Positions 1 through 11,035 of a stretch of 11,035 bases of DNA are shown here, piece by piece. The notes below the pieces were generated by a model, which saw only the letters and a list, made by a program, of their open reading frames with translations, had not been told where the DNA came from and searched no databases. Each line of letters opens with the position of its first letter. Within the stretch, counting starts at the first letter, position 1. The stretch lies in UHGV virus genome UHGV-0227640; one strand, 5' to 3'. This DNA is from a virus. The position numbers and the translations under genes are program-made.

Positions 1-215
1 ACCCGTGCGTTACTGAAAAACGGCAGCAATGTTTTGTCTTCCACCAGCGGCTGGCGAACGGCAGGAACGACCCCGGACGGCAGATTACGCATGCTTTTCG
101 GTTCCGGCTCCACCAGTACCCGGGTATTGTGGAATACCGGCATGGATTCACGGCCTAGTTTAAGGACCACCAGCCCAAGCTCTGGCACCAGAACAGGTCT
201 AAGTAATACCCGCAC
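1..215 (-). CDS. Partial CDS running off the left edge (5' end only); hypothetical protein
   Basis: Manual translation of minus strand from GTG at 215-213: VRVLLRPVLVPELGLVVLKLGRESMPVFHNTRVLVEPEPKSMRNLPSGVVPAVRQPLVEDKTLLPFFSNAR... stays open to position 1. GGAGG lies 4 nt upstream, overlapping the TAA stop of the 217-495 gene. The plus-strand ORF 34-477 looks like its antisense shadow. Could instead be a frameshifted continuation of the 217-495 gene. Confidence 0.35.
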   Translation of the reverse strand, partial: MRVLLRPVLVPELGLVVLKLGRESMPVFHNTRVLVEPEPKSMRNLPSGVVPAVRQPLVEDKTLLPFFSNAR

Positions 216-216
216 G

Positions 217-495
217 TTACCTCCAGATCCGTTGCTGGAAAGTGCGGGACGCACGTGGTGGGCGTTCGGAATAAGGCAGCCTGACAGAGATTATCCAGTG
301 CCGATAGTCGAGACTGAGAGCTTTCTTAACCTCGAACCCGCGCCTGCGGTAAGAATGAATCAGCCATTCGGCCTGTTCTTCAGTGCATGGGGGATGCTGG
401 TACCAATCAGATTTAAATGCGTGAGAGCGCCGCCCGTGCCTGCTGGCAAAGACGGCAGAATCATCAGAATTGTGTAATTTGGTATCGTGCGCCAT
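217..495 (-). CDS. Hypothetical 92-aa protein
   Basis: ORF-track ORF (MAHDTKLHNSDDSAVFASRHGRR...). Weak SD. Sits just downstream of the terminator of the HTH-peptidase operon. No motif recognised. Confidence 0.45.
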   Translation of the reverse strand: MAHDTKLHNSDDSAVFASRHGRRSHAFKSDWYQHPPCTEEQAEWLIHSYRRRGFEVKKALSLDYRHWIISVRLPYSERPPRASRTFQQRIWR

Positions 496-562
496 CGGTT
501 GTCTCTGCTGGCGCAGCAGGTGCCAGTTGTTCAGGCTGGCCTGTGGATTGTAAACCAGAATA

Positions 563-590
563 CGTAAAACAAAAACCCGCCGAGGCGGGT
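563..590 (-). terminator. Rho-independent terminator of the two-gene operon
   Basis: Minus-strand hairpin ACCCGC-cucg-GCGGGU (plus 575-590) followed by UUUUUGUUUU, 12 nt after the TAA stop at 602-604. Confidence 0.6.
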
Positions 591-601
591 ATGAATGAGA
601 A

Positions 602-1747
602 TTATTTTTGTTTTATGGTAAATGAAATAACATTGTCAGAATGAATCATATCTGATTCTTTAAATCGTGTAATTGCAGATAACTCATTTAAGGGAAGAGC
701 AAAGATATCAGTTAACTCAGTTACCTTTATGATTGAATGCTTATCAAGAAGTAAAAGTAACTTATTAAGTAACTCAGGCTCTTCTTTTGGGATTGCATCA
801 TCTAACGGCTCCCTACGATGGAATGGCGCTAATTGCTTAAATATATAGCTTTTCTGATTATCGCTGATTAACTTAAGGCTATGACTCCTCATGGCAATAC
901 TACCGATAGATGTAATCCAACGTAGTTTTAATCGTTCTAACGCTGATAAATTTGGACTATAAAATTCACGCCCGAAAGTGGTGGCTGGCATTAAAAAGCT
1001 GGAGGCAAAATAATCGGCCTGCAACTCCACCAGGTCGAATAATTCTTTATCATTCAGGTAGTCATCCTCCACTGCCCTATGCATAATTAAATGGCCAAGT
1101 TCATGAGCAAGACTAAATCGCATGCGAACAGCCGTCTTCGAGCTATCTAACATAATTAAAGGCCGCCCATTATGCCAGAACGAAAAGGCATCAACTTTCT
1201 CACCAGAAGGTAAATGAGAAACCACGATTCCTTTATTTTCAACAAGTCTAGTTAAATTGAGTATTGGACCATCACCTAACCCCCAAAAACGCCTTAATTG
1301 GGTGGACATATCCTCAATATCAGATAGAGACAGAACCTCAAAATCAATAATATCGAATTCAGGCAGAACCACATCTGGTAATTGAGCATATTTTAGACAT
1401 TCATCCAATATTAATGCCGCCCAACGCCCACGTGTTTTCCCTGTAACTCGAGCCTTTTTGGTCGCAGTTGAACGACTTCTAAAATGAATCGCCCCCTCCA
1501 GAGATGGAGAAGCACTGGAGGCTAAGAAAAATCGTTCTGGAAATCCTAACACCTTGGCTATTGCAGAAAGTGTATCAGCAGAGGGAGACTTCAACCCCTT
1601 CTCAAATGACGAAATAGCTTGTCTTGAAATATTGAGCACTCTGGCAAGTTCAGCCATCGTCAACCCTTTTGCCTCTCTTGCCTCCTCAAGGCGACGAGGA
1701 TTAAACGATTTATCAGTAAATGGTGTTTGTGCGATATTCATGCTCAT
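602..1747 (-). CDS. XRE-family HTH fused to ImmA/IrrE-type (COG2856 / M78-like) zinc metallopeptidase; candidate antitoxin/regulator
   Basis: 381-aa ORF. N-terminal XRE HTH (GLTMAELARVLNISRQAISSFEKGLKSP). HEXXH motif HELGHLIMH at about residue 232, as in the ImmA/IrrE family. Start ATG overlaps the upstream stop (ATGA at 1744-1747). Terminator follows. Confidence 0.85.
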   Translation of the reverse strand: MSMNIAQTPFTDKSFNPRRLEEAREAKGLTMAELARVLNISRQAISSFEKGLKSPSADTLSAIAKVLGFPERFFLASSASPSLEGAIHFRSRSTATKKARVTGKTRGRWAALILDECLKYAQLPDVVLPEFDIIDFEVLSLSDIEDMSTQLRRFWGLGDGPILNLTRLVENKGIVVSHLPSGEKVDAFSFWHNGRPLIMLDSSKTAVRMRFSLAHELGHLIMHRAVEDDYLNDKELFDLVELQADYFASSFLMPATTFGREFYSPNLSALERLKLRWITSIGSIAMRSHSLKLISDNQKSYIFKQLAPFHRREPLDDAIPKEEPELLNKLLLLLDKHSIIKVTELTDIFALPLNELSAITRFKESDMIHSDNVISFTIKQK

Positions 1748-2358
1748 GATTGCTGTGATTTAATTATTTGTTCGGTAAGAATCTTGATTTTATCTTCAAT
1801 CTCAGAATCCACATTTTCTGCTTCAACTTCTACCATCGTCATAATTGGTAAAGACTCAGTATAAAGAATCCCGTAATTATCCGAAGAAGGAACAGTTAAA
1901 TTCAGTTTGGACAAGTGCTGATTACTGCCATCATGTAACATATAAACATGTCCACCAGACGCTCTCCCATCCAGGGAGTCGGCATTTTCATCCCCAAAAT
2001 TCAATTCATAATTTTGATTAGCGTAAACAGCTCTATACAATGCCTGCTTAGGAAGTGGCGCATTACCCGATAAATGATGTGCCGTCATTTTCCAGTTGTT
2101 CGAGTGAATCGCAATGTGTTTACAATTTTTAGCAGCATTGCTACCGACTTCAAAATCCAGCCCCACACGCTTAGCCGCATTCTCAAGCAATGCATCGGCA
2201 TAAAACCAGCGCAAATATGACTGTGCTTGAGCCCAAAAAGAACCAAACTCTTTTGCCTTCATATGCGAATGAAGATAAGCCTGTGCTAACGCGATCGAAA
2301 GCTCTTTGCGGCACTCCTTGTCATATGCTTCTAACAACTGTTGAGATAAATTCTGCAT
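1744..2358 (-). CDS. Hypothetical 204-aa protein, first gene of the operon; candidate toxin/effector partner of the HTH-peptidase
   Basis: 204-aa ORF. AAGGA about 12 nt upstream of ATG at 2358. Stop overlaps start of downstream gene. No transmembrane segment or catalytic motif I recognise (His/Asn-rich centre HIAIHSNNW...HHLSGN...GGHVYMLHDGSNQH, acidic C-terminus). Visibly more A+T-rich than the phage core genes. Confidence 0.75.
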   Translation of the reverse strand: MQNLSQQLLEAYDKECRKELSIALAQAYLHSHMKAKEFGSFWAQAQSYLRWFYADALLENAAKRVGLDFEVGSNAAKNCKHIAIHSNNWKMTAHHLSGNAPLPKQALYRAVYANQNYELNFGDENADSLDGRASGGHVYMLHDGSNQHLSKLNLTVPSSDNYGILYTESLPIMTMVEVEAENVDSEIEDKIKILTEQIIKSQQS

Positions 2359-2383
2359 GACCGTAATATCCTTGTTGTTTTGG

Positions 2384-2423
2384 TGTCAACCATATTTCCA
2401 TTTAACATCGACTTTGTCAACCA
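2384..2423. promoter_or_regulatory. Putative promoter/operator of the two-gene operon
   Basis: Minus strand reads GGTTGACA (plus 2415-2423) and again GGTTGACA (plus 2384-2392): a TTGACA -35-like hexamer plus a second copy 31 bp downstream near the expected transcription start. The -10 is weak (AAATAT/GAAATA). Possible autoregulatory site for the XRE HTH. Confidence 0.25.
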
Positions 2424-2435
2424 GGTAGATGCTAG

Positions 2436-2456: not shown

Positions 2457-2524
2457 AAGCGCGGGTGCATTGAGGATGCCTGACTCATCAGAGGTGGCGA
2501 GGGATTTCTCCCCCGCCTAGTCTC

Positions 2525-2680
2525 TTACTCCTCAGGTTCGTAAGCTGTGAAGACAGCGACCTCCGTCTGGCCGGTTCGGATTCGTACCTCGCAGAGGTCT
2601 TTCCTCGTTACCAGTGCCGTCACTATGACGGTTAAACAGATGACGATCAGGGCGATTAACATCGCCTTTTGCTGCTTCAT
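2525..2680 (-). CDS. hokD: Hok/Gef-family type I toxin (small membrane-depolarising peptide), HokD/RelF-like
   Basis: Not in ORF track (51 aa). Manual translation of minus strand 2680->2525: MKQQKAMLIALIVICLTVIVTALVTRKDLCEVRIRTGQTEVAVFTAYEPEE. AAGGAG 9 nt upstream. From memory this matches HokD (RelF) of E. coli K-12. No relB/relE upstream. Confidence 0.8.
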   Translation of the reverse strand: MKQQKAMLIALIVICLTVIVTALVTRKDLCEVRIRTGQTEVAVFTAYEPEE

Positions 2681-2938
2681 AGCCTGCTTCTCCTTGACCT
2701 TTCGGTCCGTAAGAGGCTAATCTCTATGTGTCGCATAGATATGGCCTCAGATTAATGTTAAGCGTCTTGCAGGACGCGTAATGTTAACTGGGGCTTTTCT
2801 CTATCTGCCTTTTGGTGTTCATGCCTGAGACAGATAGCCTCAAGCACCCGCAGTCATTCTACTTAACTAAGATTTCCCCGCAAACCGTTTTTGTCCGGCA
2901 CAGTAAATATCCAACTAAACCAATGGCGTTCGCTGTAT
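2677..2938 (-). promoter_or_regulatory. hok mRNA leader region; expected position of mok-like coupling ORF and antisense Sok-like RNA
   Basis: 258 bp with no long ORF. A 19-codon uORF (minus 2736->2677, MRHIEISLLRTERSRRSRL) ends in an ATGA overlap with the hok start. Plus-strand TTGACC (2694-2699), 18 bp, TAATCT (2718-2723) could drive an antisense RNA. Inverted repeat CTATCTG/CAGATAG at 2801-2837. Confidence 0.3.
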
Positions 2939-3118
2939 TTACCGCCAGTATTCAATGCACATGACCGCCATGAACACCCCTAAAAAAAGGGCATTTATAT
3001 ATCCAAATATTAATATCAAAACATCAACTTTTTCCATATACCTTGCTGTGAAGATGATGGGCATACATGATACGAACAACCAGAACGCAACAAACAAAAA
3101 CTGCAATGCGTTTTTCAT
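2939..3118 (-). CDS. Small hydrophobic protein (59 aa, two predicted transmembrane helices)
   Basis: MKNALQFLFVAFWLFVSCMPIIFTARYMEKVDVLILIFGYINALFLGVFMAVMCIEYWR. Strong SD (AGGAGG) 4 nt upstream of ATG at 3118. The ORF-track N-terminal extension to 3157 lacks an SD. Embedded in a strongly A+T-rich stretch (about 2950-3290). Confidence 0.55.
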   Translation of the reverse strand: MKNALQFLFVAFWLFVSCMPIIFTARYMEKVDVLILIFGYINALFLGVFMAVMCIEYWR

Positions 3119-3288
3119 TATTCCTCCTACAATCAATGTGCAATTACATTTAAACACACCTCAATTTGGCCGGACATATAAATATCTAAACCAGAAAAAA
3201 TCACTTACATAGCGTTACAAACTCTTTAGTCTAAATATTCATCGTAAAACATTCCCCATACTTATCAGCCCGTTCTGCGCCAGGTAGC

Positions 3289-3605
3289 TCATTGCCTTAT
3301 CTGGGAATCTGTAATCAGGTTTCCGGATGCTGGTGGATTTTCGCGTTTTAGTTGTTCATAAAAGTGCACAGCTTTAACCAGTTCTTCTGATGTAACCGGG
3401 ACTGGCGGGGCAGTGAATAAGGCCTGAATTTCATAGTTCGGCCTGTCGTTACAATCCTCTTTTTTCGGTACATATTTCCAGTCACCAGACCACTACTTCC
3501 CCTGAAAGTCCGTAACGCCTTTTTTTTCACGTAGCGATATCGCCATGCCACTGTTTTTGCTTGCCCCGCCGTTTCATGCCCTTCCTGATAATTAACCTCG
3601 CTCAT
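3289..3605 (-). pseudogene. Decayed Ea22-like paralog (frameshift plus in-frame stop)
   Basis: 5' end (GTG/ATG at 3605, MSEVNYQ...) is DNA-similar to the 5' ends of the Ea22-like genes at 6470 and 7092. After about 20 codons the listed frame turns implausible (basic, low complexity), while the +1 frame carries protein-like WSGDWKYVPKKEDCNDRPNYEIQALFTAPPVPVTSEELVKAVHFYEQLKRENPPASGNLITDSQIRQ ending at 3289, preceded by TAG. Homopolymer runs (T8 at 3520-3527, T6 at 3470-3475) are likely slippage sites. Confidence 0.4.
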
Positions 3606-3778
3606 TCATCGCCCCACTCATCACAATATGCTTCGACCGGAGTTTTTCCTGCTTCATAATCATCACGCCATGCTTCAGCATCAGCAGCACTGCCACCACG
3701 TAACTCTGCATAGTCCATTAACAGTTCATGCCATGCTTCAAAACTGACGTTGTATTTAGTTGAACCAAAATCAGCCAT
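3602..3778 (-). CDS. Small acidic protein (58 aa), hypothetical
   Basis: Manual translation: MADFGSTKYNVSFEAWHELLMDYAELRGGSAADAEAWRDDYEAGKTPVEAYCDEWGDE. GAGG about 10 nt upstream. Start overlaps stop of the 3771-3953 gene and its stop overlaps the start at 3605 (ATGA). Below ORF-track cutoff. Confidence 0.5.
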   Translation of the reverse strand: MADFGSTKYNVSFEAWHELLMDYAELRGGSAADAEAWRDDYEAGKTPVEAYCDEWGDE

Positions 3779-3953
3779 TTTGCTCTTCCTCTTCGTCTTT
3801 TATTTCGTGATATGAGTAATTGCAGTAGTTAAAGAAAATATCTTTTGCTTCGTCATGTATTTCATCAGGCGTCGCATCATCATCCACTTCGAATTCATCC
3901 TCGAAATCTCCACCGGCTATTCCCGTTTCAATAATTATTTTAAACTTTCGCAT
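3771..3953 (-). CDS. Small highly acidic protein (60 aa), hypothetical; possible DNA-mimic
   Basis: ORF-track ORF MRKFKIIIETGIAGGDFEDEFEVDDDATPDEIHDEAKDIFFNYCNYSYHEIKDEEEEQNG; about 20 of 60 residues are Asp/Glu. Preceded by a structured leader (hairpins at 3961-3976 and 3991-4009). Confidence 0.55.
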   Translation of the reverse strand: MRKFKIIIETGIAGGDFEDEFEVDDDATPDEIHDEAKDIFFNYCNYSYHEIKDEEEEQNG

Positions 3954-4046
3954 TTAACTACCGCCCTTTCGGGCGGCCTCCTGATGTTCTGAGGGTGCAG
4001 AAATCCCTCCGGTTAAGGATTAAATTTTTAACAGAGCTAAATTTAA

Positions 4047-4403
4047 TTATTCAGTTCTGGATTTTGTCGCCCTGCGTATCCGCGCTTTCGCGTTACGCTC
4101 AATCTGAATTAGCTTTTCTATATTTTTTCGCCTTTCCTGTTCCTCCTGGCGCAATAGCCTTACATCATCTGCCAGTCTGGTTTCTCTTTTCGCCACAGAG
4201 AGCATCCAGTCAAATGGTTCCACAACTGCACCGCAGATTTTACAGCGGACCTGACGCTCTTTTTCGTCAACCCGGACAGAGGCGTGATGACAATATGGTC
4301 TTTCCGATGGCTCATAAAGAAAATTAACCTGATTACGAGGGTCATCCTCTTTTACCGGAAATAAAACGATATTGCTTAACTCATCCTCTGGTTTTATTTC
4401 CAT
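4047..4403 (-). CDS. Hypothetical protein (118 aa) with zinc-ribbon-like Cys/His cluster and basic coiled-coil tail
   Basis: Internal start MEIKPEDE... at 4403 with AAGGAGAGGAG upstream; the ORF-track extension to 4460 lacks an SD. PYCHH...CKICG motif. C-terminus rich in R/K/E (RRKNIEKLIQIERNAKARIRRATKSRTE). Confidence 0.6.
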   Translation of the reverse strand: MEIKPEDELSNIVLFPVKEDDPRNQVNFLYEPSERPYCHHASVRVDEKERQVRCKICGAVVEPFDWMLSVAKRETRLADDVRLLRQEEQERRKNIEKLIQIERNAKARIRRATKSRTE

Positions 4404-4524
4404 GCTCCTCTCCTTTGATGCGAATGCCAGCGGTAATTGAAGCCTGATAGCTAATTTCACTCACAGTACCGCCTCCTGAAAATTTAATGAACAATTCAAT
4501 ACGTTCTTTGGTAATAGTGGTCAT
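4381..4524 (-). pseudogene. Chimeric 47-codon ORF / deletion scar of an Ea22-like gene
   Basis: MTTITKERIELFIKFSGGGTVSEISYQASITAGIRIKGEEHGNKTRG. The first 21 bp match the 5' end of the gene at 5207 (19/21). The middle contains the TTTTCAGGAGG module. Then an Ea22-like N-terminus (VSEISYQA) is fused directly to the Ea22 C-terminal codons (AGIRIKGE; DNA CCGCTGGCATTCGCATCAAAGGAGAG identical to 5726-5751). Confidence 0.3.
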
Positions 4525-4534
4525 GTGTTACTCC

Positions 4535-4798
4535 TTAACCCGCAGTGCTTTCAACTGATGAGGGGAACAAAATCTTTTCATCAAACCCTGCATTCATATC
4601 ATGAACAGCAACACACCAATCCATCGACGAACGATTATCAAGAGCCTCCATGATTTCATCCATGCGGCGCAGGTCATACAGGTAAATGCTTTTATCGCCA
4701 ATGGTGTAAAAACCAATTTTTTTCGGTGATGGGCAGCGATCAAGAACGTCCTGTAATTCGTTCAACCATGCCCGTTCTTTTTTTGTTAAAGTTGCCAT
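4535..4798 (-). CDS. Hypothetical phage protein (87 aa)
   Basis: Internal start MATLTKKERAWLNELQDVL... at 4798 with AAGGAGAG SD; upstream stop at 4800-4802. The ORF-track extension to 4858 overlaps the upstream gene. Confidence 0.6.
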   Translation of the reverse strand: MATLTKKERAWLNELQDVLDRCPSPKKIGFYTIGDKSIYLYDLRRMDEIMEALDNRSSMDWCVAVHDMNAGFDEKILFPSSVESTAG

Positions 4799-4799
4799 A

Positions 4800-5207
4800 T
4801 CACTCTCCTTTCCCATGAAGCATAGCGGCGCGGCAGGCGTTCCATATTTCGGCAGCAATATCGCGCTCGCTATCGGTTAATTTGTACGTGGAAACATAGC
4901 CAGAGAGCATTTCTACGTTTTCCGGAGTTGCTTCTTCCGGCACTATCGGCGCTGGAGGGGCGGCAAATAGATATCCGCCAAAGTCAGGAAGCTCTCCAAT
5001 GGCCTGTACGAACTTTTGTTTGCCTACGTCAACTCCTAATGGGTAATGAGCTATAATCTTTGCCACCGGCTCTGCTTCCAGCGATACCAGTGCAATTCGT
5101 GCCAGTTCTTCCGCTTCTTCTGCTGGCAGTACAACGTTGCTACCCGGTCCGTATGTTTCGCGCCACTGCTTGATTGTCAGCAGTCGCCCTTTGGTAATAG
5201 TGATCAT
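4800..5207 (-). CDS. Hypothetical phage protein (135 aa)
   Basis: ORF-track ORF MITITKGRLLTIKQW...; ATGA overlap with the upstream gene at 5204-5207. Confidence 0.65.
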   Translation of the reverse strand: MITITKGRLLTIKQWRETYGPGSNVVLPAEEAEELARIALVSLEAEPVAKIIAHYPLGVDVGKQKFVQAIGELPDFGGYLFAAPPAPIVPEEATPENVEMLSGYVSTYKLTDSERDIAAEIWNACRAAMLHGKGE

Positions 5208-5719
5208 GCCGCGTTTCCTTCTTTCTTATTAACAATCACACCGTCATATATTTCATTAAGGTGCCCTCTCAACTCCATGCGCCTTAATGCAGATAACATG
5301 TAATCGCATTCAACCTGCTTATTCCCAGTAAATGGCTTATCGTCAGGATTACCCCAACAGCAATTACCCCTGGGCCATCCATGTACTTTCCGTACTCTTC
5401 CGTTAACAACGTGAAGTAATCCCCAGCCGGGAGGTAAATCCTCAACTGAAATAATTTCCGGCTCACTAATAAAGAATCGCCAGTCGCCCATGCCAAGTGA
5501 GGGATTTTTACGGAAACGCTTTTTTCTATCTGCCAACAAGTCAGCACGAGAACACTTCGCCTCTATCAGGCATGATGCTGAATTTCTGAATCCCATAGCA
5601 TCTGGCTGTTCTCCGGTACTGGTTACAGCAACAAAGCGGTCATGAAAGCAAACCTTGAACCCGTTGCGCTTAAGGAACTTGTACGCAATCTGACAGAGTT
5701 CGCGGTGTGTTAACGCCAT
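5204..5719 (-). CDS. Hypothetical phage protein (171 aa), possible PD-(D/E)xK-type nuclease fold
   Basis: ORF-track ORF. Pattern ...QPDAMGF...CLIEAKCSRADL resembles the D...ExK catalytic signature. Assignment tentative. Confidence 0.65.
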   Translation of the reverse strand: MALTHRELCQIAYKFLKRNGFKVCFHDRFVAVTSTGEQPDAMGFRNSASCLIEAKCSRADLLADRKKRFRKNPSLGMGDWRFFISEPEIISVEDLPPGWGLLHVVNGRVRKVHGWPRGNCCWGNPDDKPFTGNKQVECDYMLSALRRMELRGHLNEIYDGVIVNKKEGNAA

Positions 5720-5720
5720 A

Positions 5721-6470
5721 TCACTCTCCTTTGATGCGAATGCCAGCGGCGCGGATTGCAGCGATGACTTCAGAAACTTTGTATGCCATTACCGTTTGGT
5801 AATCATCGTGAAAATCTGTTCGATGAAGCATGCTGCTACGTTCCGGGAGCGATATTTCCCGAGCATCCAGTTCCTTAACGCGTTCCTCCAGTTCGTAGAC
5901 CCTGCATTGTTCTCTATCATCAATCAGATATAACCCAAGACATTCGCTTTCTACCCAACCGCCAAAATCATGATCGTAACGCTCACATGAAAACTCACCG
6001 TCACCGTCCTTTGTTGGAATGGTGTAACTATCTAATGGGCCACCATATGTCGGCACATTCCCCAATGTTGGATGCTCAATCCACATGAAAAATGCACGTC
6101 CGGTTATTGGGCAAATATCTGGCCGCCATTGGTTACGAACAGCCTTGGTTTCGGATAATTCTTCAGCGTGTTGTTTTACTTCCTCAAGCTCAACTCTCAG
6201 CTTCCCTACCGTTAGCGCAATATCCTCGTTCTCCTGGTCGCGGCGTTTGATGTATTGCTGGTTCCTTTCCCGTTCATCCAGTAGTGCCAGCACGGTTTCT
6301 GGTCCGGTCAGAAATTTGAAGGCATTGAGCGCATCAATATCCACACCGTAATCTTTAAGTTCCTGTTCACTTAACAAATCATCATCAGTTGGCAACATTA
6401 ACAGGCGTTCCATTGCTGGAATTGCACGTTCTGCTGCCTCACGCAGTGCCTGGTAATTAATTTCGCTCAC
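5721..6470 (-). CDS. Ea22-like (ead/Ea22 family) early protein, 249 aa
   Basis: GTG start at 6470 with AAGGAGG upstream. N-terminus MSEINYQALREAAERA is characteristic of lambdoid Ea22-like proteins as I recall them. Coiled-coil-like middle. C-terminus ...AGIRIKGE. Confidence 0.7.
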   Translation of the reverse strand: MSEINYQALREAAERAIPAMERLLMLPTDDDLLSEQELKDYGVDIDALNAFKFLTGPETVLALLDERERNQQYIKRRDQENEDIALTVGKLRVELEEVKQHAEELSETKAVRNQWRPDICPITGRAFFMWIEHPTLGNVPTYGGPLDSYTIPTKDGDGEFSCERYDHDFGGWVESECLGLYLIDDREQCRVYELEERVKELDAREISLPERSSMLHRTDFHDDYQTVMAYKVSEVIAAIRAAGIRIKGE

Positions 6471-6910
6471 TGGTTGCCTCCTTTGCGAAGCTCTGCGGCT
6501 AAATACTCCAACGCCATTACCGGGACGCCAACAAGCACAGTTCCTTTAAACTTCTTATGCAGGTGCTCGATAGCTGTATCCACGCCCTGCGCCCGTACTT
6601 CAGCCAGGAAAGCATCGGTGGCCGGAGTTTCAGGAATCCGTCTCCTCATCAGTTCTATTGCATGATTGAACCCGAAATCTTCAGCAAGAGATACGTCATC
6701 CATATTGTCATTGTCGTCCTCAATATCCCGTGGTTCTGGAATTGCAGACTTTATTACCGCATTCTCCGCCGCCAGCGCCGCGCACTTGGCCTCAAGAGCG
6801 GCAACCACTTCCTGATGGTCTTTGTACTTAACGTATGAGCCGGAGATGTCATCACCTTCGGTGTTTAGCCATGCGTCATTGCAATTCACTGCGTAGGTTC
6901 TGATGCTCAT
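6467..6910 (-). CDS. Hypothetical phage protein (147 aa); possibly the C-terminal part of a split Ea22-like gene
   Basis: Start MSIRTYAVNCND... at 6910 with GGGAGAG upstream; ATGA overlap with the stop of the 61-aa ORF. The ORF-track extension to 6967 is read in the frame overlapping that ORF. Confidence 0.55.
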   Translation of the reverse strand: MSIRTYAVNCNDAWLNTEGDDISGSYVKYKDHQEVVAALEAKCAALAAENAVIKSAIPEPRDIEDDNDNMDDVSLAEDFGFNHAIELMRRRIPETPATDAFLAEVRAQGVDTAIEHLHKKFKGTVLVGVPVMALEYLAAELRKGGNQ

Positions 6911-7092
6911 GTTGATGCTCTCCCGCCCCTGACAGACGCCAGGCCAGTCAATAAAGTATCCGCACAATGCCTACCCTCAGACGTGCGCGCAGGATAAATG
7001 CCGTTATGACCCGGCAAAATATATGCTACCCATTCATCTTGCGTTGCCTGTTCCGCCGCCTCGCGCAGTGCCTGATAGTCAATCTTGCTCAC
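6907..7092 (-). CDS. Ea22-like N-terminal fragment (61 aa); truncated paralog or 5' part of a frameshifted gene spanning 6467-7092
   Basis: GTG start at 7092. MSKIDYQALREAAEQATQDEW matches the N-terminus of the 249-aa Ea22-like protein. DNA at 7040-7092 is about 80% identical to 6421-6470. Confidence 0.45.
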   Translation of the reverse strand: MSKIDYQALREAAEQATQDEWVAYILPGHNGIYPARTSEGRHCADTLLTGLASVRGGRAST

Positions 7093-7573
7093 TGGTCGCC
7101 TCCTTCATAAAAATAATCCAGTGGGTCTTGTCACCCTTTCCTGTTCGTTGACCGATAACAGGCTTTCTGTCGGTCAGTGCCAATATCTGGCGAACAGGTA
7201 TTTGCGTTTCATTCCATTTAAAAATCAGAACGCTGTATGGCCGCAACACACGAAAGGCTTCTTTAAATCCCTGCCGCAAATCATCACGCCAGGTATCTTT
7301 ATTCAGCCGTCCATATTTCTTTCCCATCCAGGCGTTATCACCAACACGCTCAAGATGCGGAGGGTCGAATACAACAACCGGAAACGATGCGTCTGCAAAT
7401 GGTAATGCACGAAAATCTGCTATCAGGTCAGGGCTAATTATCAGTCTTCGTCCATCACATAATGTGTGCTCTTCCTTTCTGATATCGCTAAATATCGCCC
7501 GGTCGTCATTCTTATCGAACCAGAACATGCGGCTGCCACAGCACATATCAAGAATGGTTGCCGGTGCACTCAC
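7079..7573 (-). CDS. Small SAM-dependent DNA methyltransferase (orphan; N6-adenine or N4-cytosine type)
   Basis: 164-aa ORF. Motif I-like ILDMCCGSRMFWFD near the N-terminus and motif IV-like VVVFDPPH. GTG start overlapping the upstream stop (GTGA). No adjacent restriction enzyme gene. Confidence 0.6.
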   Translation of the reverse strand: MSAPATILDMCCGSRMFWFDKNDDRAIFSDIRKEEHTLCDGRRLIISPDLIADFRALPFADASFPVVVFDPPHLERVGDNAWMGKKYGRLNKDTWRDDLRQGFKEAFRVLRPYSVLIFKWNETQIPVRQILALTDRKPVIGQRTGKGDKTHWIIFMKEATSEQD

Positions 7574-7992
7574 TGCGCTACCTCCTGAAAATTACCCTGA
7601 TAAAACGACAATATGCGCTGCATAACTTCGCTCTTCCGGCACTCGCGACAGATTATGTTCTGACGCCTGTCGTAGCGGCGTATTTCGCCGTCTGGTAATA
7701 GCCAGATAAGGTCCGGATCAACCACAGATGGTTTCTTCAGCTTTGCCCTTGAGAGTTTTTTGCGGGCGTTTTGCCAGTCCTTGCGCGCCTGCTCAGACGG
7801 GAATACTCCGTAACCGGAATTGTAAACATCACCACTGGCGGCCAGCTCCATGCATAAACGACCGACAGACGCATGACTGACACCAATTTCATCCGATAAC
7901 TGCCGAATCGTGCCTCGTCCGTTAAGGCGTACGAATTCCACGATCAGCCCTTTAATTTTTTCCCGCTCTTCTTGTGTAAAAACTTTTGCCAC
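7570..7992 (-). CDS. HTH (winged-helix-like) DNA-binding protein, 140 aa
   Basis: ORF-track ORF. GTG start with GGAGG 5 nt upstream. HTH-like segment GTIRQLSDEIGVSHASVGRLCMELA. Confidence 0.6.
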   Translation of the reverse strand: MAKVFTQEEREKIKGLIVEFVRLNGRGTIRQLSDEIGVSHASVGRLCMELAASGDVYNSGYGVFPSEQARKDWQNARKKLSRAKLKKPSVVDPDLIWLLPDGEIRRYDRRQNIICRECRKSEVMQRILSFYQGNFQEVAQ

Positions 7993-8032
7993 AAGCCCTC
8001 CTGAAAATTACCTCATGACCAGAAATTAACAC

Positions 8033-8995
8033 TTACCCCCTGAAGCCCGGCGGAATTTCAGTGTCCGGTTCAGAAATGTGATTCACGCAACGCTGCGCAG
8101 GCGAACGCCCCAGGCGGATAACCAGTTCATCCCATTTTTCCCGGAGTTTTGCCGGACTCATGATGTTTTTTACCCAGAACGAATCCCGCTGGAGACGCCC
8201 AAACATTTCACAAATTTGTCTGTGAGTTCTGCCATCCAGCATCCGCATTGTGCGAACGTCATTGGCCCATGCTGTCCAGTTGGGTTCTTTCGGTCTAGTG
8301 ATCTCGCCATCATAGCTGGCCGCCTGCTCGTAAAGACTCACGATTCGTCCCCAGATCCACTGTGCGCACACCAAATCTTCCTGACTTCCCCACTGGCGTT
8401 TTTTCGCACTGAACACAACCGCGTCAGGGTGTCGGGTTAAAAAATCCTGTTCAGCCGTCTGCGGGTCCGGTTGCGAAGCGTCCGGACAAGAAGATCTTTT
8501 ATCTGACGGATCAGGTTTTAATACTGACGGATCGGGGTCAATCATCGGCCCCCTAATCGGCAGTTTTTTATCAACAGTTGATCCATCAAAATTTGACGGG
8601 TCAACCGTTGAGGGGTCAATATTTGACGGGTCAACTGTTAACGGGTCATTTTTTGCCGGGCTAATTTTTCTTTTCGGTTTATATGACTCACGCGCCGCCG
8701 CCGCAGCTGCTTCGAGTTTTTCCACATTAAGCCGATAGATATTGCTTACATTACGCCCACCGACCTTACGCTCTTCCTTCGTCAGCCAGCCCTCTTTCGC
8801 CAGTTCTGCAATAGCCGATTTCACTGTGGATTCACTTCTTGCACCGATCTGACGCCGGATAGTTTCAATGGCAGGCCATGACACGCCCTCGTCATTGCTG
8901 TAGTCTGCAAGACGGGCCATAACCGCCACCCTGGATAAGATCATGCCGGTGAAGGCGCACCCTTCCCAGACAAGACCATGAAGCTTGCTGCTCAT
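8033..8995 (-). CDS. Phage replication initiator (lambda O-like): N-terminal winged-helix DNA-binding domain, repetitive linker, C-terminal domain
   Basis: N-terminus ...MARLADYSNDEGVSWPAIETIRRQIGARSESTVKSAIAELAKEGWLTKEER. Linker with repeats DPLTVDPSNIDPSTVDPSNFDGSTVD encoded by the DNA iterons. ATG at 8995 with a G-rich SD preferred over GTG at 9010. Confidence 0.75.
   Translation of the reverse strand: MSSKLHGLVWEGCAFTGMILSRVAVMARLADYSNDEGVSWPAIETIRRQIGARSESTVKSAIAELAKEGWLTKEERKVGGRNVSNIYRLNVEKLEAAAAAARESYKPKRKISPAKNDPLTVDPSNIDPSTVDPSNFDGSTVDKKLPIRGPMIDPDPSVLKPDPSDKRSSCPDASQPDPQTAEQDFLTRHPDAVVFSAKKRQWGSQEDLVCAQWIWGRIVSLYEQAASYDGEITRPKEPNWTAWANDVRTMRMLDGRTHRQICEMFGRLQRDSFWVKNIMSPAKLREKWDELVIRLGRSPAQRCVNHISEPDTEIPPGFRG
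8500..8690. repeat. Iteron array plus A+T-rich segment: putative phage origin of replication inside the initiator gene
   Basis: About six copies of TGACGG(G/A)TCA and variants at 8504, 8525, 8594, 8609, 8624 and 8638, some spaced 15 bp apart, followed by the A+T-rich stretch 8649-8685 (TTTTTTGCCGGGCTAATTTTTCTTTTCGGTTTATATG). Confidence 0.55.
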
Positions 8996-9017
8996 AAAAC
9001 CCCCGAACACCGTGCTT

Positions 9018-9443
9018 TTAGTGCATCACCACAGCATTCCCTGCCGGGCCGCCGCGATTCATCTGGTCATACAAAACAACCGCTGACGCAACAAAATCAT
9101 CGACATCCTTCACCAGCCGATCCCTCCGTTCGACGATCTCACGGTAATATTCAGAACTGTGGCTGCGCATACGGGCCACCAGCAAAGGCGGCATCGCCTT
9201 TTCGATCGCCGGTAACAGAGCCTGCATTTTTTCAACAGCATCAGGGGTGTCTTTATCCAGCCAACGGAAAATTTTCTGGGTATTACGGGCCAGGGCTTCC
9301 GGATGGCTGTCGTCATACAGTTCCGGGAACGTCATTCCCAGCTCGAAATACGCTTTGGTAATTTTCGCAGCCGGCACTTTTTCGCCGTCCGGATGCGCCC
9401 AGACATTCATCGCCATGCGGATGTGTTCATGCTTGATTTTCAT
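9018..9443 (-). CDS. YdaT-like (CII-like) regulatory protein, 141 aa
   Basis: ORF-track ORF MKIKHEHIRMAMNVWAHPDGEK.... The position (between the Cro-like and replication genes) and the N-terminus resemble E. coli Rac YdaT as I recall it. Confidence 0.6.
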   Translation of the reverse strand: MKIKHEHIRMAMNVWAHPDGEKVPAAKITKAYFELGMTFPELYDDSHPEALARNTQKIFRWLDKDTPDAVEKMQALLPAIEKAMPPLLVARMRSHSSEYYREIVERRDRLVKDVDDFVASAVVLYDQMNRGGPAGNAVVMH

Positions 9444-9708
9444 GAATCAAGCTCCTAGAAAGTGGTTGTGTTAACGTTTTGGTATCTTCCAGCTCGGGCC
9501 AAATATTCATCCAATCAAAAGGCCTTAGTTGCTGACGTGTAACTTCACCATTACTGGCTCGCTCAATAAGGACACATAACGATGCCCCTAACACTTGACC
9601 TTTACTCAATGCCTTTCTTAGATAACCGATGCTGGTACCACACTCGCATGCAAACATACGCTGTTCATCTGACGAAAGAGAATTGAGAAATATTCTTAAT
9701 TCTTCCAT
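9427..9708 (-). CDS. Cro-like / YdaS-like HTH regulator, 93 aa
   Basis: ORF-track ORF. AAGGAG 6 nt upstream of ATG at 9708. HTH-like segment CECGTSIGYLRKALSKGQVLGASLCVLIERAS. Divergent from the repressor gene. Confidence 0.7.
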   Translation of the reverse strand: MEELRIFLNSLSSDEQRMFACECGTSIGYLRKALSKGQVLGASLCVLIERASNGEVTRQQLRPFDWMNIWPELEDTKTLTQPLSRSLIHENQA

Positions 9709-9732
9709 AGCTACTCCTTAGTAAACACAGCA

Positions 9733-9802
9733 AAGAATACCCACAGGTAAACAAAAGTCAATACCCACAGGTTGTTTACCTTGCGGTAATCGCATCTATT
9801 AT
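9733..9802. promoter_or_regulatory. Immunity switch: divergent promoters with operator-like sites
   Basis: Sites TACCCACAGGTA (9738-9749) and TACCCACAGGTT (9762-9773), 24 bp centre to centre. Inverted repeat AGGTAAACAA / TTGTTTACCT (9746-9755 / 9771-9780). Leftward promoter TTGACT (9761-9756), 16 bp, TATTCT. Rightward TTTACC (9775-9780), 16 bp, TATTAT (9797-9802), placing the transcript start at or next to the ATG at 9809 (leaderless, no SD). Confidence 0.5.
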
Positions 9803-9808
9803 TTACCT

Positions 9809-10228
9809 ATGGACAAATATGAATTTAGACGACAGCAACTCATCAAAATTCGTGATGAGAAATGCGATGGTAAAGCGGTTAACGTGGCCAGAAAGATCGG
9901 GCGCGAGCCTTCTTATGTATCAAGAATGTTGTACCCAGAGGGGAAAAAGGGAAAAAAACGGATCGCTGATGATATGGTGGAGATTATCGAAGAGTCCTTT
10001 GGGTTACCCCGGGGATGGATGGATGGTATCGTTTCATCATCAACGAACACAGCCTCCAGTTATGAAACAAGGGTTCTAACGCCACGACAACGTATTTTTT
10101 TAGATCTCTTAGACGAACTGCCAGAAAGTGAAGCGGATAAATTATTAAAAACTCTTGAAGAGAAAAAACAGTATTACAATATGATCTACGAAGAAATCCG
10201 TAAAAAGAAAGCACAAAACGCATCATAG
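9809..10228 (+). CDS. Prophage repressor-like HTH protein (positional equivalent of CI/DicA/RacR), 139 aa
   Basis: ORF-track ORF. HTH-like segment AVNVARKIGREPSYVSRMLYP. C-terminal ...LDELPESEADKLLKTL resembles the DicA C-terminal region as I recall it. No S24 peptidase domain. Confidence 0.7.
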   Translation: MDKYEFRRQQLIKIRDEKCDGKAVNVARKIGREPSYVSRMLYPEGKKGKKRIADDMVEIIEESFGLPRGWMDGIVSSSTNTASSYETRVLTPRQRIFLDLLDELPESEADKLLKTLEEKKQYYNMIYEEIRKKKAQNAS

Positions 10229-10270
10229 CTCACCAAACAACTAGTCACCAGTTAAGACACCGCAAAAATT

Positions 10271-10307
10271 TACCCATGGGTATTTACTTTTTAAATACCT
10301 ATGGGTA
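10271..10307. promoter_or_regulatory. Second pair of operator-like sites upstream of the ydfA-like operon
   Basis: Perfect palindrome TACCCATGGGTA (10271-10282) and TACCTATGGGTA (10296-10307), 25 bp centre to centre, same consensus as the sites at 9738-9773. Confidence 0.4.
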
Positions 10308-10493
10308 TCCTTCTTTTCATACCAACCCACCCCGCCCCACAGAACGCCAGGCAATACTTCGAGTTACCCGGCAGTGGTCAGGGGTTAAGTAGCCAGCCCG
10401 AGGCGTATGAACATGACGGCGGGAACACTTTATATAACAGCGCAGCAGTTTTTTAGTTCCGCTACCCCGGCGTTAAGGGGAAATGAGGTCAGC

Positions 10494-10649
10494 ATGGATA
10501 CTATCGATCTTGGCAACAGCGAATCTCTGGTATGTGGCGTGTTCCCCAACCAGGACGGTACGTTCACCGCAATGACGTATACCAAAAGCAAAACGTTTAA
10601 AACCGAAAATGGTGCCCGTCGCTGGCTGGAAAGAAACTCAGGTGAGTGA
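10494..10649 (+). CDS. ydfA: YdfA/YdaF-family (DUF1391) small protein, 51 aa
   Basis: Internal start MDTIDLGNSESLVCGVFPNQDGTFTAMTYTKSKTFKTENGARRWLERNSGE with GAGG 6 nt upstream. Matches YdfA of the K-12 dicB operon from memory. The ORF-track extension from 10407 lacks an SD. Confidence 0.6.
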   Translation: MDTIDLGNSESLVCGVFPNQDGTFTAMTYTKSKTFKTENGARRWLERNSGE

Positions 10650-10650
10650 T

Positions 10651-10779
10651 ATGGATTTTGACACAATCATGGAAAAGGCTTACGAAGAATACTTCGAAGG
10701 CCTTGCCGAAGGCGAAGAAGCTCACAGCTTCAACGAATTTAAACAGGTGCTTTCCAGTTCGGCAAAATCTAACGGCTGA
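10651..10779 (+). CDS. ydfB: YdfB-like small protein, 42 aa
   Basis: Manual translation MDFDTIMEKAYEEYFEGLAEGEEAHSFNEFKQVLSSSAKSNG. Start is 1 nt after the upstream TGA. Size and position match ydfB. Below ORF-track cutoff. Confidence 0.5.
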   Translation: MDFDTIMEKAYEEYFEGLAEGEEAHSFNEFKQVLSSSAKSNG

Positions 10780-10808
10780 TAAGCGAAACAGCACCGCGAG
10801 GAATCAGT

Positions 10809-11027
10809 ATGCAGAAACGAGAACCCGTCATCATCGCGCCAGACTATACCGATGATGAACTTTATGAGTGGATGCGCCAGAAAATTAATGCAGCGCAGGA
10901 TCTGAAATGGGCCAATGAAGCCAGGACTAAGCAGGCTGAAAATCTGTCCGCTCTGGAGCAGGATATCACCAGGCTGGAAAAAGCAGCGGCATTAAGCATT
11001 GCCAGAATGGTTACATACCCACGTTAA
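10809..11027 (+). CDS. ydfC: YdfC-like protein, 72 aa
   Basis: ORF-track ORF MQKREPVIIAPDYTDDELYEWMRQKINAAQDLKW.... GAGGAA SD. Size and position match ydfC of the dicB operon from memory. Confidence 0.55.
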   Translation: MQKREPVIIAPDYTDDELYEWMRQKINAAQDLKWANEARTKQAENLSALEQDITRLEKAAALSIARMVTYPR

Positions 11028-11035
11028 TAGCTAAC

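Follow-up and report, generated by a model that had tools for sequence, protein, structure and literature searches.

In the RefSeq annotation of Qin, the decayed lambda-like prophage of Escherichia coli K-12 (reference NC_000913.3 1632277-1652745), four minus-strand genes (rem, hokD, relE and relB) are followed by two plus-strand genes (ydfV and flxA), three more minus-strand genes (ydfW, ydfX and dicC) and the plus-strand series dicA, ydfA, ydfB, ydfC, dicF, dicB and ydfD. The siphovirus Tritos (OV696610.1), prophage 3 of E. coli LF82, yields virions and gave a plaque once (PMC9928086); its gene order is ydfU, a hypothetical gene, RmrA, RmrT, HokD, cargo, DUF977, O, YdaT and Cro, and in the other arm CI, ydfABC, DicF, dicB, ydfD, exonuclease, xis and int. 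The YdaT protein of the prophage CP-933P from E. coli O157:H7 (Jurenas et al., 2021; Prolic-Kalinsek et al., 2023) is a functional equivalent of lambda CII, and its binding site TTGATTN6AATCAA lies where the ydaS coding region ends (PMC9986795). In the RosmerTA architecture, the toxin gene comes first and the gene for a zinc-peptidase antitoxin second, the RmrT toxins being described as diverse (PMC10440598). The subject of this work is an 11,035-nt stretch of the UHGV virus genome UHGV-0227640 (the window, meaning the whole stretch that was analysed), which comprises the region with the control, replication and accessory genes in an unremarkable lambda-like prophage of E. coli, from the family that includes Qin. 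In our best reading it very probably represents the central control region of a mosaic, dicBF-carrying lambdoid prophage, with K-12 Qin as a deletion-and-replacement remnant of that family.

The comparison of the window with Qin by blastn produced three matches whose order and strands agree between the two: positions 1-512 matched the 5' end of ydfU with its upstream DNA (90.4% identity), 2436-2694 matched hokD (97.7%) and 10455-11034 matched ydfA-ydfB-ydfC (96.4%). This was confirmed at the protein level by tblastn: the window Hok was identical to K-12 HokD in 51 of 51 residues (E 2e-30), and the YdfA, YdfB and YdfC homologues showed 96% (E 3e-31), 93% (E 1.6e-22) and 96% (E 4.7e-44) identity to their Qin counterparts. 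The three latter genes (ydfA, 10494..10649; ydfB, 10651..10779; ydfC, 10809..11027; all on the plus strand) lie directly downstream of the repressor on the repressor strand, ydfA (Pfam DUF1391, 8.8e-28) being the first gene of a dicBF-type early-left operon and ydfC being annotated under this name in the identical prophage L001 of strain E01. All the window genes leftward from 9708 to 1 are encoded by the minus strand and form an early-right arm of the lambda type. The distance from the start of hok to the start of ydfA amounts to 7.8 kb in the window versus 3.2 kb in Qin, and no DNA similarity to Qin was detected by blastn for the immunity, replication and cargo genes. The initial annotation of this DNA, made from the letters alone, had given a Qin gene order that agrees with the RefSeq annotation of NC_000913.3, and had seen hok and ydfABC in the same relative positions as in Qin; with Hok, YdfA, YdfB and YdfC 93–100% identical to the K-12 proteins, this observation stands. 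The YdaT-like, O-like, methyltransferase and Ea22 genes which it placed in the enlarged interval were likewise confirmed by Pfam, PHROG and PADLOC matches.

Relatives were gathered by three exact-protein anchors (the repressor, RmrT and a 171-aa open reading frame, ORF), supplemented with L001, L005 and Tritos (L026). The resulting 31 loci consisted of 30 relatives and K-12 Rac (L004) as a comparator, the window and the K-12 Qin copies (L002 and L003) being excluded. Nearly all relatives had a common backbone, with int, xis, exonuclease (YdfE), YdfD, DicB, DicF, (YdfC, YdfB), YdfA and repressor in one arm and Cro, YdaT, O, (DnaC-like), DUF977, variable cargo, sok/hok, variable cargo, 92-aa ORF, DUF968, (RusA) and Q in the other. 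When searched with the Qin proteins by tblastn, 29 of the 30 relatives were positive for HokD, for DicB and for YdfD, and 28 for YdfA (with YdaF of Rac matching as well), while RelE, RelB, YdfV, FlxA and YdfW were found in none of them and Rem in a single one (L014). The K-12 DicF sequence was present in 23 of the 24 non-K-12 loci tested by blastn. The 96-aa product of Qin ydfX is approximately 38% identical to the first 93 residues of YdaT-type proteins and represents a YdaT stump. The sok RNA, present in the window, Tritos and L005, had no match in the K-12 Qin locus, and the Qin similarity ends at window position 2694. The presence of HokD, YdfA, DicB and YdfD in 28–29 of 30 relatives, the absence of relBE-ydfV-flxA from all of them, the ydfX stump and the loss of sok together indicate that Qin is the family backbone in which the stretch from the middle of ydaT to sok is replaced by relBE-ydfV-flxA. 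The window thereby shows the state of Qin before its decay: relBE-ydfV-flxA is a replacement of the K-12 lineage, ydfX is what is left of ydaT, and hokD has been deprived of sok. It also shows the K-12 dicBF operon as the ordinary early-left arm of a prophage family that is still active.

The description of the window as a less decayed relative of Qin can be kept in the sense of the same mosaic family, not of the same lineage. Its right 8.5 kb is that of a prophage at the ompW site, and its YdaT is the CP-933P one. The prophage closest to Qin is Tritos, with 95–99% identity over nearly all Qin segments; the real "intact Qin" is this plaque-forming phage and not the window.

The part of the arm to the right of the window was followed in L001, the ompW-site prophage of strain E01, which had no mismatch to window positions 2520-11035. 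DicF (Rfam, 71.5 bits) starts there 925 nt and dicB 2,030 nt past the position of the right window edge, with two hypothetical ORFs and an IsrK/C4-RNA/Rha module between them, and dicB is followed by a ydfD-like gene, 3'-5' exonuclease, xis, int and then ompW. The DicB of L001 is only 64% identical to K-12 DicB (tblastn). The presence of DicF and dicB to the right of the window in its source prophage is thus well supported by relatives, albeit as a prediction for this particular copy. The expectation that they lie just beyond the right edge proved correct in the identical L001 as to their presence and too narrow as to the distance, dicB being about 2 kb away with extra genes in between.

The switch region of the window is organized as in lambda, with its own specificity. 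The immunity repressor of 139 aa (9809..10228, plus strand; phrog_5736 "transcriptional regulator", 6.4e-70) occupies the position of DicA or lambda CI. No Pfam family, including the S24 autocleavage domain, was found in it, and a search of solved structures was also empty. Its 47 C-terminal residues are 32% identical to DicA (tblastn, E 1.6e-5), while its N-terminal part is unrelated. Divergent from it is the gene of a Cro-like (YdaS-like) regulator (9427..9708, minus strand; phrog_35, 4.8e-23; a weak Pfam YdaS match below the cutoff), the first gene in the early-right operon, whose product had no tblastn match to DicC. The claim that the window has a repressor/Cro pair different from that of Qin was therefore correct: the pair has no DNA similarity to Qin, and only the 47 C-terminal residues of the repressor are DicA-like. 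A 13-nt near-palindromic motif ATACCYAYRGGTA occurs seven times in the window versus 0.74 expected, exclusively at 9737-9773 and 10270-10308. The first location contains two strong ATACCCACAGGT copies at a distance of 24 nt, and weaker ones as far as 9812, as OR-like operators between the divergent repressor and Cro-like genes among divergent promoter-like hexamers; the second contains the palindromic copies TACCCATGGGTA and ATACCTATGGGTAT as OL-like operators between the repressor gene and ydfA. This two-site layout is the OR/OL arrangement of lambda and also the one by which DicA controls dicBp in Qin (PMC10448788). The idea that a DicA-type operator is conserved ahead of ydfA was rejected, as the similarity to Qin extends no further than 39 nt in front of the start codon of ydfA; the operator DNA thus differs, which fits a different immunity specificity. 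Repressor, Cro-like protein and operator DNA all being different, the window does not have the DicA/DicC immunity specificity. Since the immunity type varies within the family, this mismatch excludes identity with Qin but not membership in its family.

The Cro-like gene is directly followed, and overlapped at its end, by ydaT (9018..9443, minus strand; PF06254; phrog_163 "CII-like transcriptional activator", 3.2e-47). Residues 2-141 of its product are identical to the crystallised CP-933P YdaT (PDB 8bt1), a DNA-binding CII equivalent, and the toxin function suggested by its Pfam and RefSeq name was rejected on this ground. The high-affinity YdaT operator OM, TTGATTN6AATCAA, has its sole exact match in the window at 9433..9450, in agreement with the motif and position footprinted earlier (PMC9986795).

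Next in the early-right arm is a gene for an O-like replication initiator (8033..9010, minus strand), matching phrog_391 over the whole profile (4.4e-115) and Pfam HTH_36; its start is annotated at 8995 in relatives. Inside this gene, a repeat search found about six tandem 15-nt iterons TCAAnnnTTGACGGG with 15-nt spacing (8571..8660), a candidate origin, which Tandem Repeats Finder reported as an array with a period of 15 and 5.2 copies. Location of the iterons within the O-like gene matches the lambda pattern of origin iterons inside O. The following gene (7570..7992, minus strand) encodes a DUF977/Ren-like protein (Pfam DUF977, 2.7e-31; phrog_142 "Ren-like exclusion protein", 2e-43), a homologue of Rac YdaW.

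Taken together, the gene positions suggest how the region most likely works. The 139-aa repressor, in the role of DicA or lambda CI, would bind the ATACCYAYRGGTA operator at two places, one in the lambda OR position at the divergent repressor and Cro-like promoters and another just ahead of ydfA, corresponding to lambda OL and to dicBp of Qin, and would thereby silence both early arms. Upon derepression, the minus-strand arm would be expressed from the Cro-like gene through YdaT, the O-like initiator, the Ren-like DUF977 protein, methyltransferase, Ea22 and small genes toward the nin/Q region, with YdaT probably acting as the CII equivalent at its site at the cro/ydaT junction and with the iteron array as a putative origin; both the origin function and the use of the promoters are predicted here. 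The plus-strand arm would be expressed from ydfA-ydfB-ydfC and continue beyond the window into DicF, dicB, ydfD, exonuclease, xis and int. Between the replication and nin genes, two cassettes would be expressed in the lysogen, the hok/sok type I toxin-antitoxin and the RosmerTA anti-phage system. Of this scheme, Qin still has the outer landmarks, namely ydfU, hokD and ydfABC-dicF-dicB.

The hok toxin gene (2525..2680, minus strand) matched Pfam HOK_GEF (PF01848; 1.2e-23) above the curated cutoff, and the sok antisense RNA with the hok mRNA leader (2678..2849, minus strand) matched the full-length Rfam model RF01794 with 106.7 bits against a gathering score of 59. The hok/sok locus is therefore complete in the window, its sok side adjoining and overlapping the 5' end of hok. 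On the early-right strand, hok is flanked by the replication/accessory genes on one side and by the DUF968-Q (nin) region on the other.

The slot between hok and the 92-aa ORF (513-2435), where Qin has the antirepressor gene rem, is filled in the window with a two-gene operon. Its first gene (1744..2358, minus strand) encodes a candidate RosmerTA toxin, RmrT, of 204 aa, with a weak and partial PADLOC match (7.5e-10) and no matching Pfam family. It has a 4-nt overlap with the gene of the RosmerTA antitoxin RmrA (602..1747, minus strand), which matched PADLOC RmrA (5.5e-102) over model positions 7-381 of 383 and consists of an XRE-type helix-turn-helix (HTH) domain (Pfam HTH_3, 2.4e-16) and an M78/ImmA zinc peptidase (Peptidase_M78, 9.7e-19). 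By architecture and profiles the pair is a RosmerTA defence system, with toxicity and defence as predicted functions. In a Tritos lysogen with identical rmr genes, transcription exceeded the prophage background 14-fold for RmrA, 30-fold for RmrT and 3,792-fold for HokD (PMC9928086). Of 5,426 complete E. coli genomes, 41 contained the operon interior, each with 99.6–100% identity; no K-12 strain was among these 41 carriers. Among the related loci, RosmerTA was seen on at least five different immunity/replication backbones. The initial annotation was thus right in calling this operon a cargo absent from K-12.

The left edge of the window cuts through a DUF968 (ydfU-like) gene belonging to the nin/Q region; the 5' end that remains (1..215, minus strand) is collinear with the annotated ydfU of L005 and approximately 90% identical in DNA to the 5' end of Qin ydfU (blastn). 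It is followed by a conserved phage ORF of 92 aa with unknown function (217..495, minus strand; phrog_1212, 1.2e-35). An intact but unannotated 92-codon ORF was found in K-12 Qin between ydfU and rem (L003 13310-13585, minus strand; NC_000913.3 about 1644309-1644584); its product and the one encoded by window 217-495 share 85% identity.

On the other side of hok/sok, a block of small accessory ORFs with unknown function (2939..5719, minus strand; taken from the ORF list, with matches to PHROG families likewise of unknown function and to DUF7167, 7.9e-15) includes a 72-aa hydrophobic protein, a pseudogene at 3289-3605, a 58-aa ORF, the DUF7167 and zinc-ribbon proteins and ORFs of 47, 107, 135 and 171 aa. 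It is preceded in the arm by an Ead/Ea22-like gene of 249 aa (5721..6470, minus strand; Pfam PF13935, 3.1e-29), a second Ea22-like gene (6467..7092, minus strand; PF13935), which is split into overlapping ORFs of 61 and 166 aa, and an orphan DNA methyltransferase of 164 aa (7079..7573, minus strand; PADLOC MTase_II 2.6e-73, oMTase 3.8e-49) with a DPPH motif visible as VVFDPPH. A 62-nt direct repeat with 82% identity (6422-6483 and 7044-7105) corresponds to the conserved N-terminal coding ends of the two Ea22-like genes.

Throughout the prophage family (loci L005-L033) hok/sok is flanked by two variable cargo slots, corresponding to window positions 513-2435 and 2850-7570. Between the 92-aa ORF and hok, relatives have either an empty slot or one occupied by Rem, RosmerTA or a 130-aa unknown protein, and the slot between sok and DUF977 may contain QueH, an FRG-domain gene, a 932-aa Cap4-nuclease/AAA_22/SEC-C protein, a DUF551 gene set or the methyltransferase/Ea22 block. 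Locus L009 is without hok, and its whole stretch from the 92-aa ORF to DUF977 is filled with an S8 peptidase and an AAA ATPase. In L027 (9214-11185), a block of Ea22, 171-aa, 135-aa and 87-aa ORFs is located in the early-left arm beside xis/int; the position of its window counterpart (4535-6470) downstream of the replication genes means that this block has been shuffled between the prophage arms. Two further observations concern L001. Two RNAs, one IsrK-like (22389-22465) and the other of the C4 antisense type (22490-22577), lie across the 5' portion of a Rha/ASH-family gene within 22338-23192, a P1/P7-like and Gifsy-like module that is a candidate antirepressor induction route for a repressor lacking S24. 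In its late region, copies of the STnc100 small RNA are present at 7207-7395 and 7671-7864 (132 and 138 bits, respectively), near iraM and tRNA genes.

Several findings weigh against the view of the window as the control region of a family member that is more complete than Qin. The genes to its right (DicF, dicB and int) and its attachment site are predicted from relatives only, neither an integrase gene nor a chromosomal flank being present in the window. The ATACC operators are assigned to the 139-aa repressor, a protein without a Pfam domain or solved homologue, by position only, and a promoter scan of the window gave no more promoter-like sites than shuffled sequence. The remaining points concern its functional state and its affiliation with Qin, and each is best considered together with the alternative that it favors.

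The first alternative is that the prophage is as defective as Qin, only larger: a domesticated remnant that does not replicate or become induced and is kept for its hok/sok, RosmerTA, methyltransferase and dicBF arm. No helicase or helicase loader gene (P, DnaC-like or DnaB-like) follows O, the DUF977 gene being located 40 nt past the O stop codon, so that from the "intact replication/early module" of the initial annotation the early-arm genes can be retained and the word "intact" cannot. A 98.8% identical O allele is followed in L010 and L025 by a DnaC-like gene and DUF1627. This pairing of the allele with a DnaC-like loader recurs in many relatives, while other prophages have DUF977 directly after it, as in the window; the window copy is therefore only putatively competent for replication. 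Loss of the DnaC-like gene by simple deletion was rejected, as the adjoining DUF977 allele of L010/L025 is only 81% identical to that of the window, indicating that the difference in the loader is a module swap. Furthermore, the region 3289-3605 is marked as a frameshifted pseudogene in the RefSeq annotation of identical DNA and the second Ea22 gene is split, its 61-aa ORF corresponding to PF13935 positions 1-45 and its 166-aa ORF to positions 38-138; the copy is thus not pristine. Its YdaT is, moreover, identical to that of CP-933P, which is described as defective (PMC9986795), and its repressor has no S24 autocleavage domain. However, the nearest relative, L001, possesses the full late set of terminase, lysis genes, Q, integrase and excisionase, the iterons and operators of the window are intact, and S24-less repressors are inducible via antirepressors, as in the case of DicA and Rem (PMC10448788). 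The plaque-forming Tritos also has O followed by DUF977 without a DnaC-like gene, and the loader-less arrangement can therefore be functional. Considering both sides, a fully defective state is possible, but on balance doubtful.

The second alternative holds that the likeness to Qin is generic and that the window comes from a CP-933P-type or ompW-site lambdoid prophage, sharing with Qin only the circulating linker cassettes hok, ydfABC and DUF968, which recombination would distribute over most E. coli lambdoid prophages; to call it a less decayed relative of Qin would then mean nothing beyond a lambdoid prophage that has a dicBF arm. The similarity to Qin inside the window is indeed limited to three short cassettes, the immunity, replication and cargo genes lying outside it, and hok-type sequences were detected in 4,938 of 5,426 genomes at a median of two places per genome, which makes shared cassettes poor lineage markers. 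The YdfA is also 86% identical to YdaF of Rac, the YdaT is the same as in CP-933P, and the right 8.5 kb has its identical counterpart in a prophage from the ompW site and not from the Qin site. The exact repressor protein, found in 18,489 blocks of the assembly index, stands beside differing integrases and attachment sites. Against this, ydfU, the 92-aa ORF, a cargo slot, hok and ydfABC-DicF-dicB-ydfD-exonuclease recur as one backbone in nearly all relatives, while Rac is without hok, ydfB, ydfC and dicB. Moreover, a stump from this YdaT family, ydfX, occupies the corresponding position in Qin, and the left 2.7 kb of the window recurs unchanged in a prophage integrated beside rspB, at the attachment site of Qin. 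A purely generic likeness is, accordingly, rather unlikely, and membership in the dicBF-carrying family with Qin as its remnant is preferred.

A separate matter is the join between the two parts of the window. Positions 1-2696 matched the prophage which strain E01 carries at rspB, the Qin site, without a single mismatch, and this prophage co-resides with the ompW-site one in strains such as E01 and Ecol_316. The overlap of the two exact matches, 1-2696 and 2520-11035, places the crossover within 177 nt common to both (2520-2696), including the hok coding region. The two hok copies of E01 are mutually inverted and 366 kb apart. The junction of rmrT with hok was found in none of the 5,426 complete E. 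coli genomes, its exact pattern with the hok upstream region was absent from genome_contigs, viral_contigs and metagenome_contigs, and RosmerTA was combined with the early region of the window in none of the 27 contexts obtained by exact-protein look-ups with the repressor, RmrT and the 171-aa ORF. The join could be an inversion, a hybrid phage or an assembly chimera. A real exchange between co-resident prophages with a crossover in hok, moving RosmerTA onto a different immunity/replication backbone through a ~366-kb inversion or in a hybrid phage, is a tentative and rather improbable proposal; if true, hok/sok between its variable cargo slots would be a conserved recombination linker which shuffles defence and moron cargo among Qin-like prophages. 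An assembly artifact, in which the left 2.5 kb and the right 8.5 kb were joined via the near-identical hok/sok of two resident prophages and RosmerTA would not be the cargo of this backbone, agrees with the mismatch-free switch between two E01 prophages within 177 common nucleotides and with the absence of the junction from the genomes and contig collections, but appears distinctly improbable, given that lambdoid mosaics arise by homologous exchange at such shared cassettes, that RosmerTA resides on several other backbones, that a single inversion between the E01 hok copies gives exactly this join and that hybrid phages from co-resident prophages have been isolated in LF82 (PMC9928086). Since both parent prophages share the layout, the Qin parallel holds whichever the origin of the join.

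The likeness to Qin is thus right, but it describes something already well known: each component is a member of a described family (Qin-type lambdoid prophages, hok/sok, RosmerTA, the YdaS/YdaT switch and O-type initiators with internal iterons), intact relatives such as Tritos and the component systems have been published, and no new biology is involved. What the analysis does correct is misleading gene labels, YdaT being a CII equivalent and the pair labelled "HTH protein plus hypothetical" being RosmerTA. In comparison with the RosmerTA systems (Millman et al., 2022; PADLOC models), the window pair has the same toxin-first order with an antitoxin of HTH plus M78/ImmA type as the second gene, but its match to the toxin model is weak and partial. 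K-12 Rac has the same early-right arm of ydaS (Cro-like), ydaT, ydaU (initiator) and ydaW (DUF977) and a DUF1391 gene, ydaF, beside its repressor, the latter 86% identical to the window YdfA. In contrast to the window, its YdaT is only 31% identical, a DnaC-like gene (ydaV) is present, and kilR and sieB are found instead of hok, ydfB, ydfC and dicB.

CP-933P agrees with the window in the switch, YdaT residues 2-141 being identical and the OM operator having an unchanged sequence and being likewise placed where the Cro-like gene ends. According to its gene table, locus L030 with a CP-933P-like PaaA2/ParE-type pair shares the window series of YdaT, O-like, DUF977, methyltransferase and Ea22 genes. 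The immunity region of CP-933P itself differs in having the PaaR2 repressor and the paaA2-parE2 toxin-antitoxin, while the window has the 139-aa repressor and no such pair there. Qin has in common with the window the order and orientation of ydfU, 92-aa ORF, cargo slot, hokD, divergent repressor/Cro and ydfA-ydfB-ydfC, and also a short S24-less repressor controlling an early-left operon which begins with ydfA. It differs by the DicA/DicC immunity, by the absence of the O-like, DUF977, methyltransferase and Ea22 genes and of sok, by relBE-ydfV-flxA-ydfW in the interval and by rem in the place of RosmerTA. Tritos matches 41% of the window at 95.9% identity, sharing RmrA, RmrT, HokD, sok, DUF977, a loader-less O, YdaT, Cro, CI and ydfABC. 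Its repressor/Cro pair is a different one, however, its O variant has 356 aa, and the cargo slot that is filled in the window by the methyltransferase/Ea22 block holds an FRG-domain gene. The differences from Qin in immunity and completeness, and those from Tritos in immunity, O gene and cargo, are normal lambdoid mosaicism.

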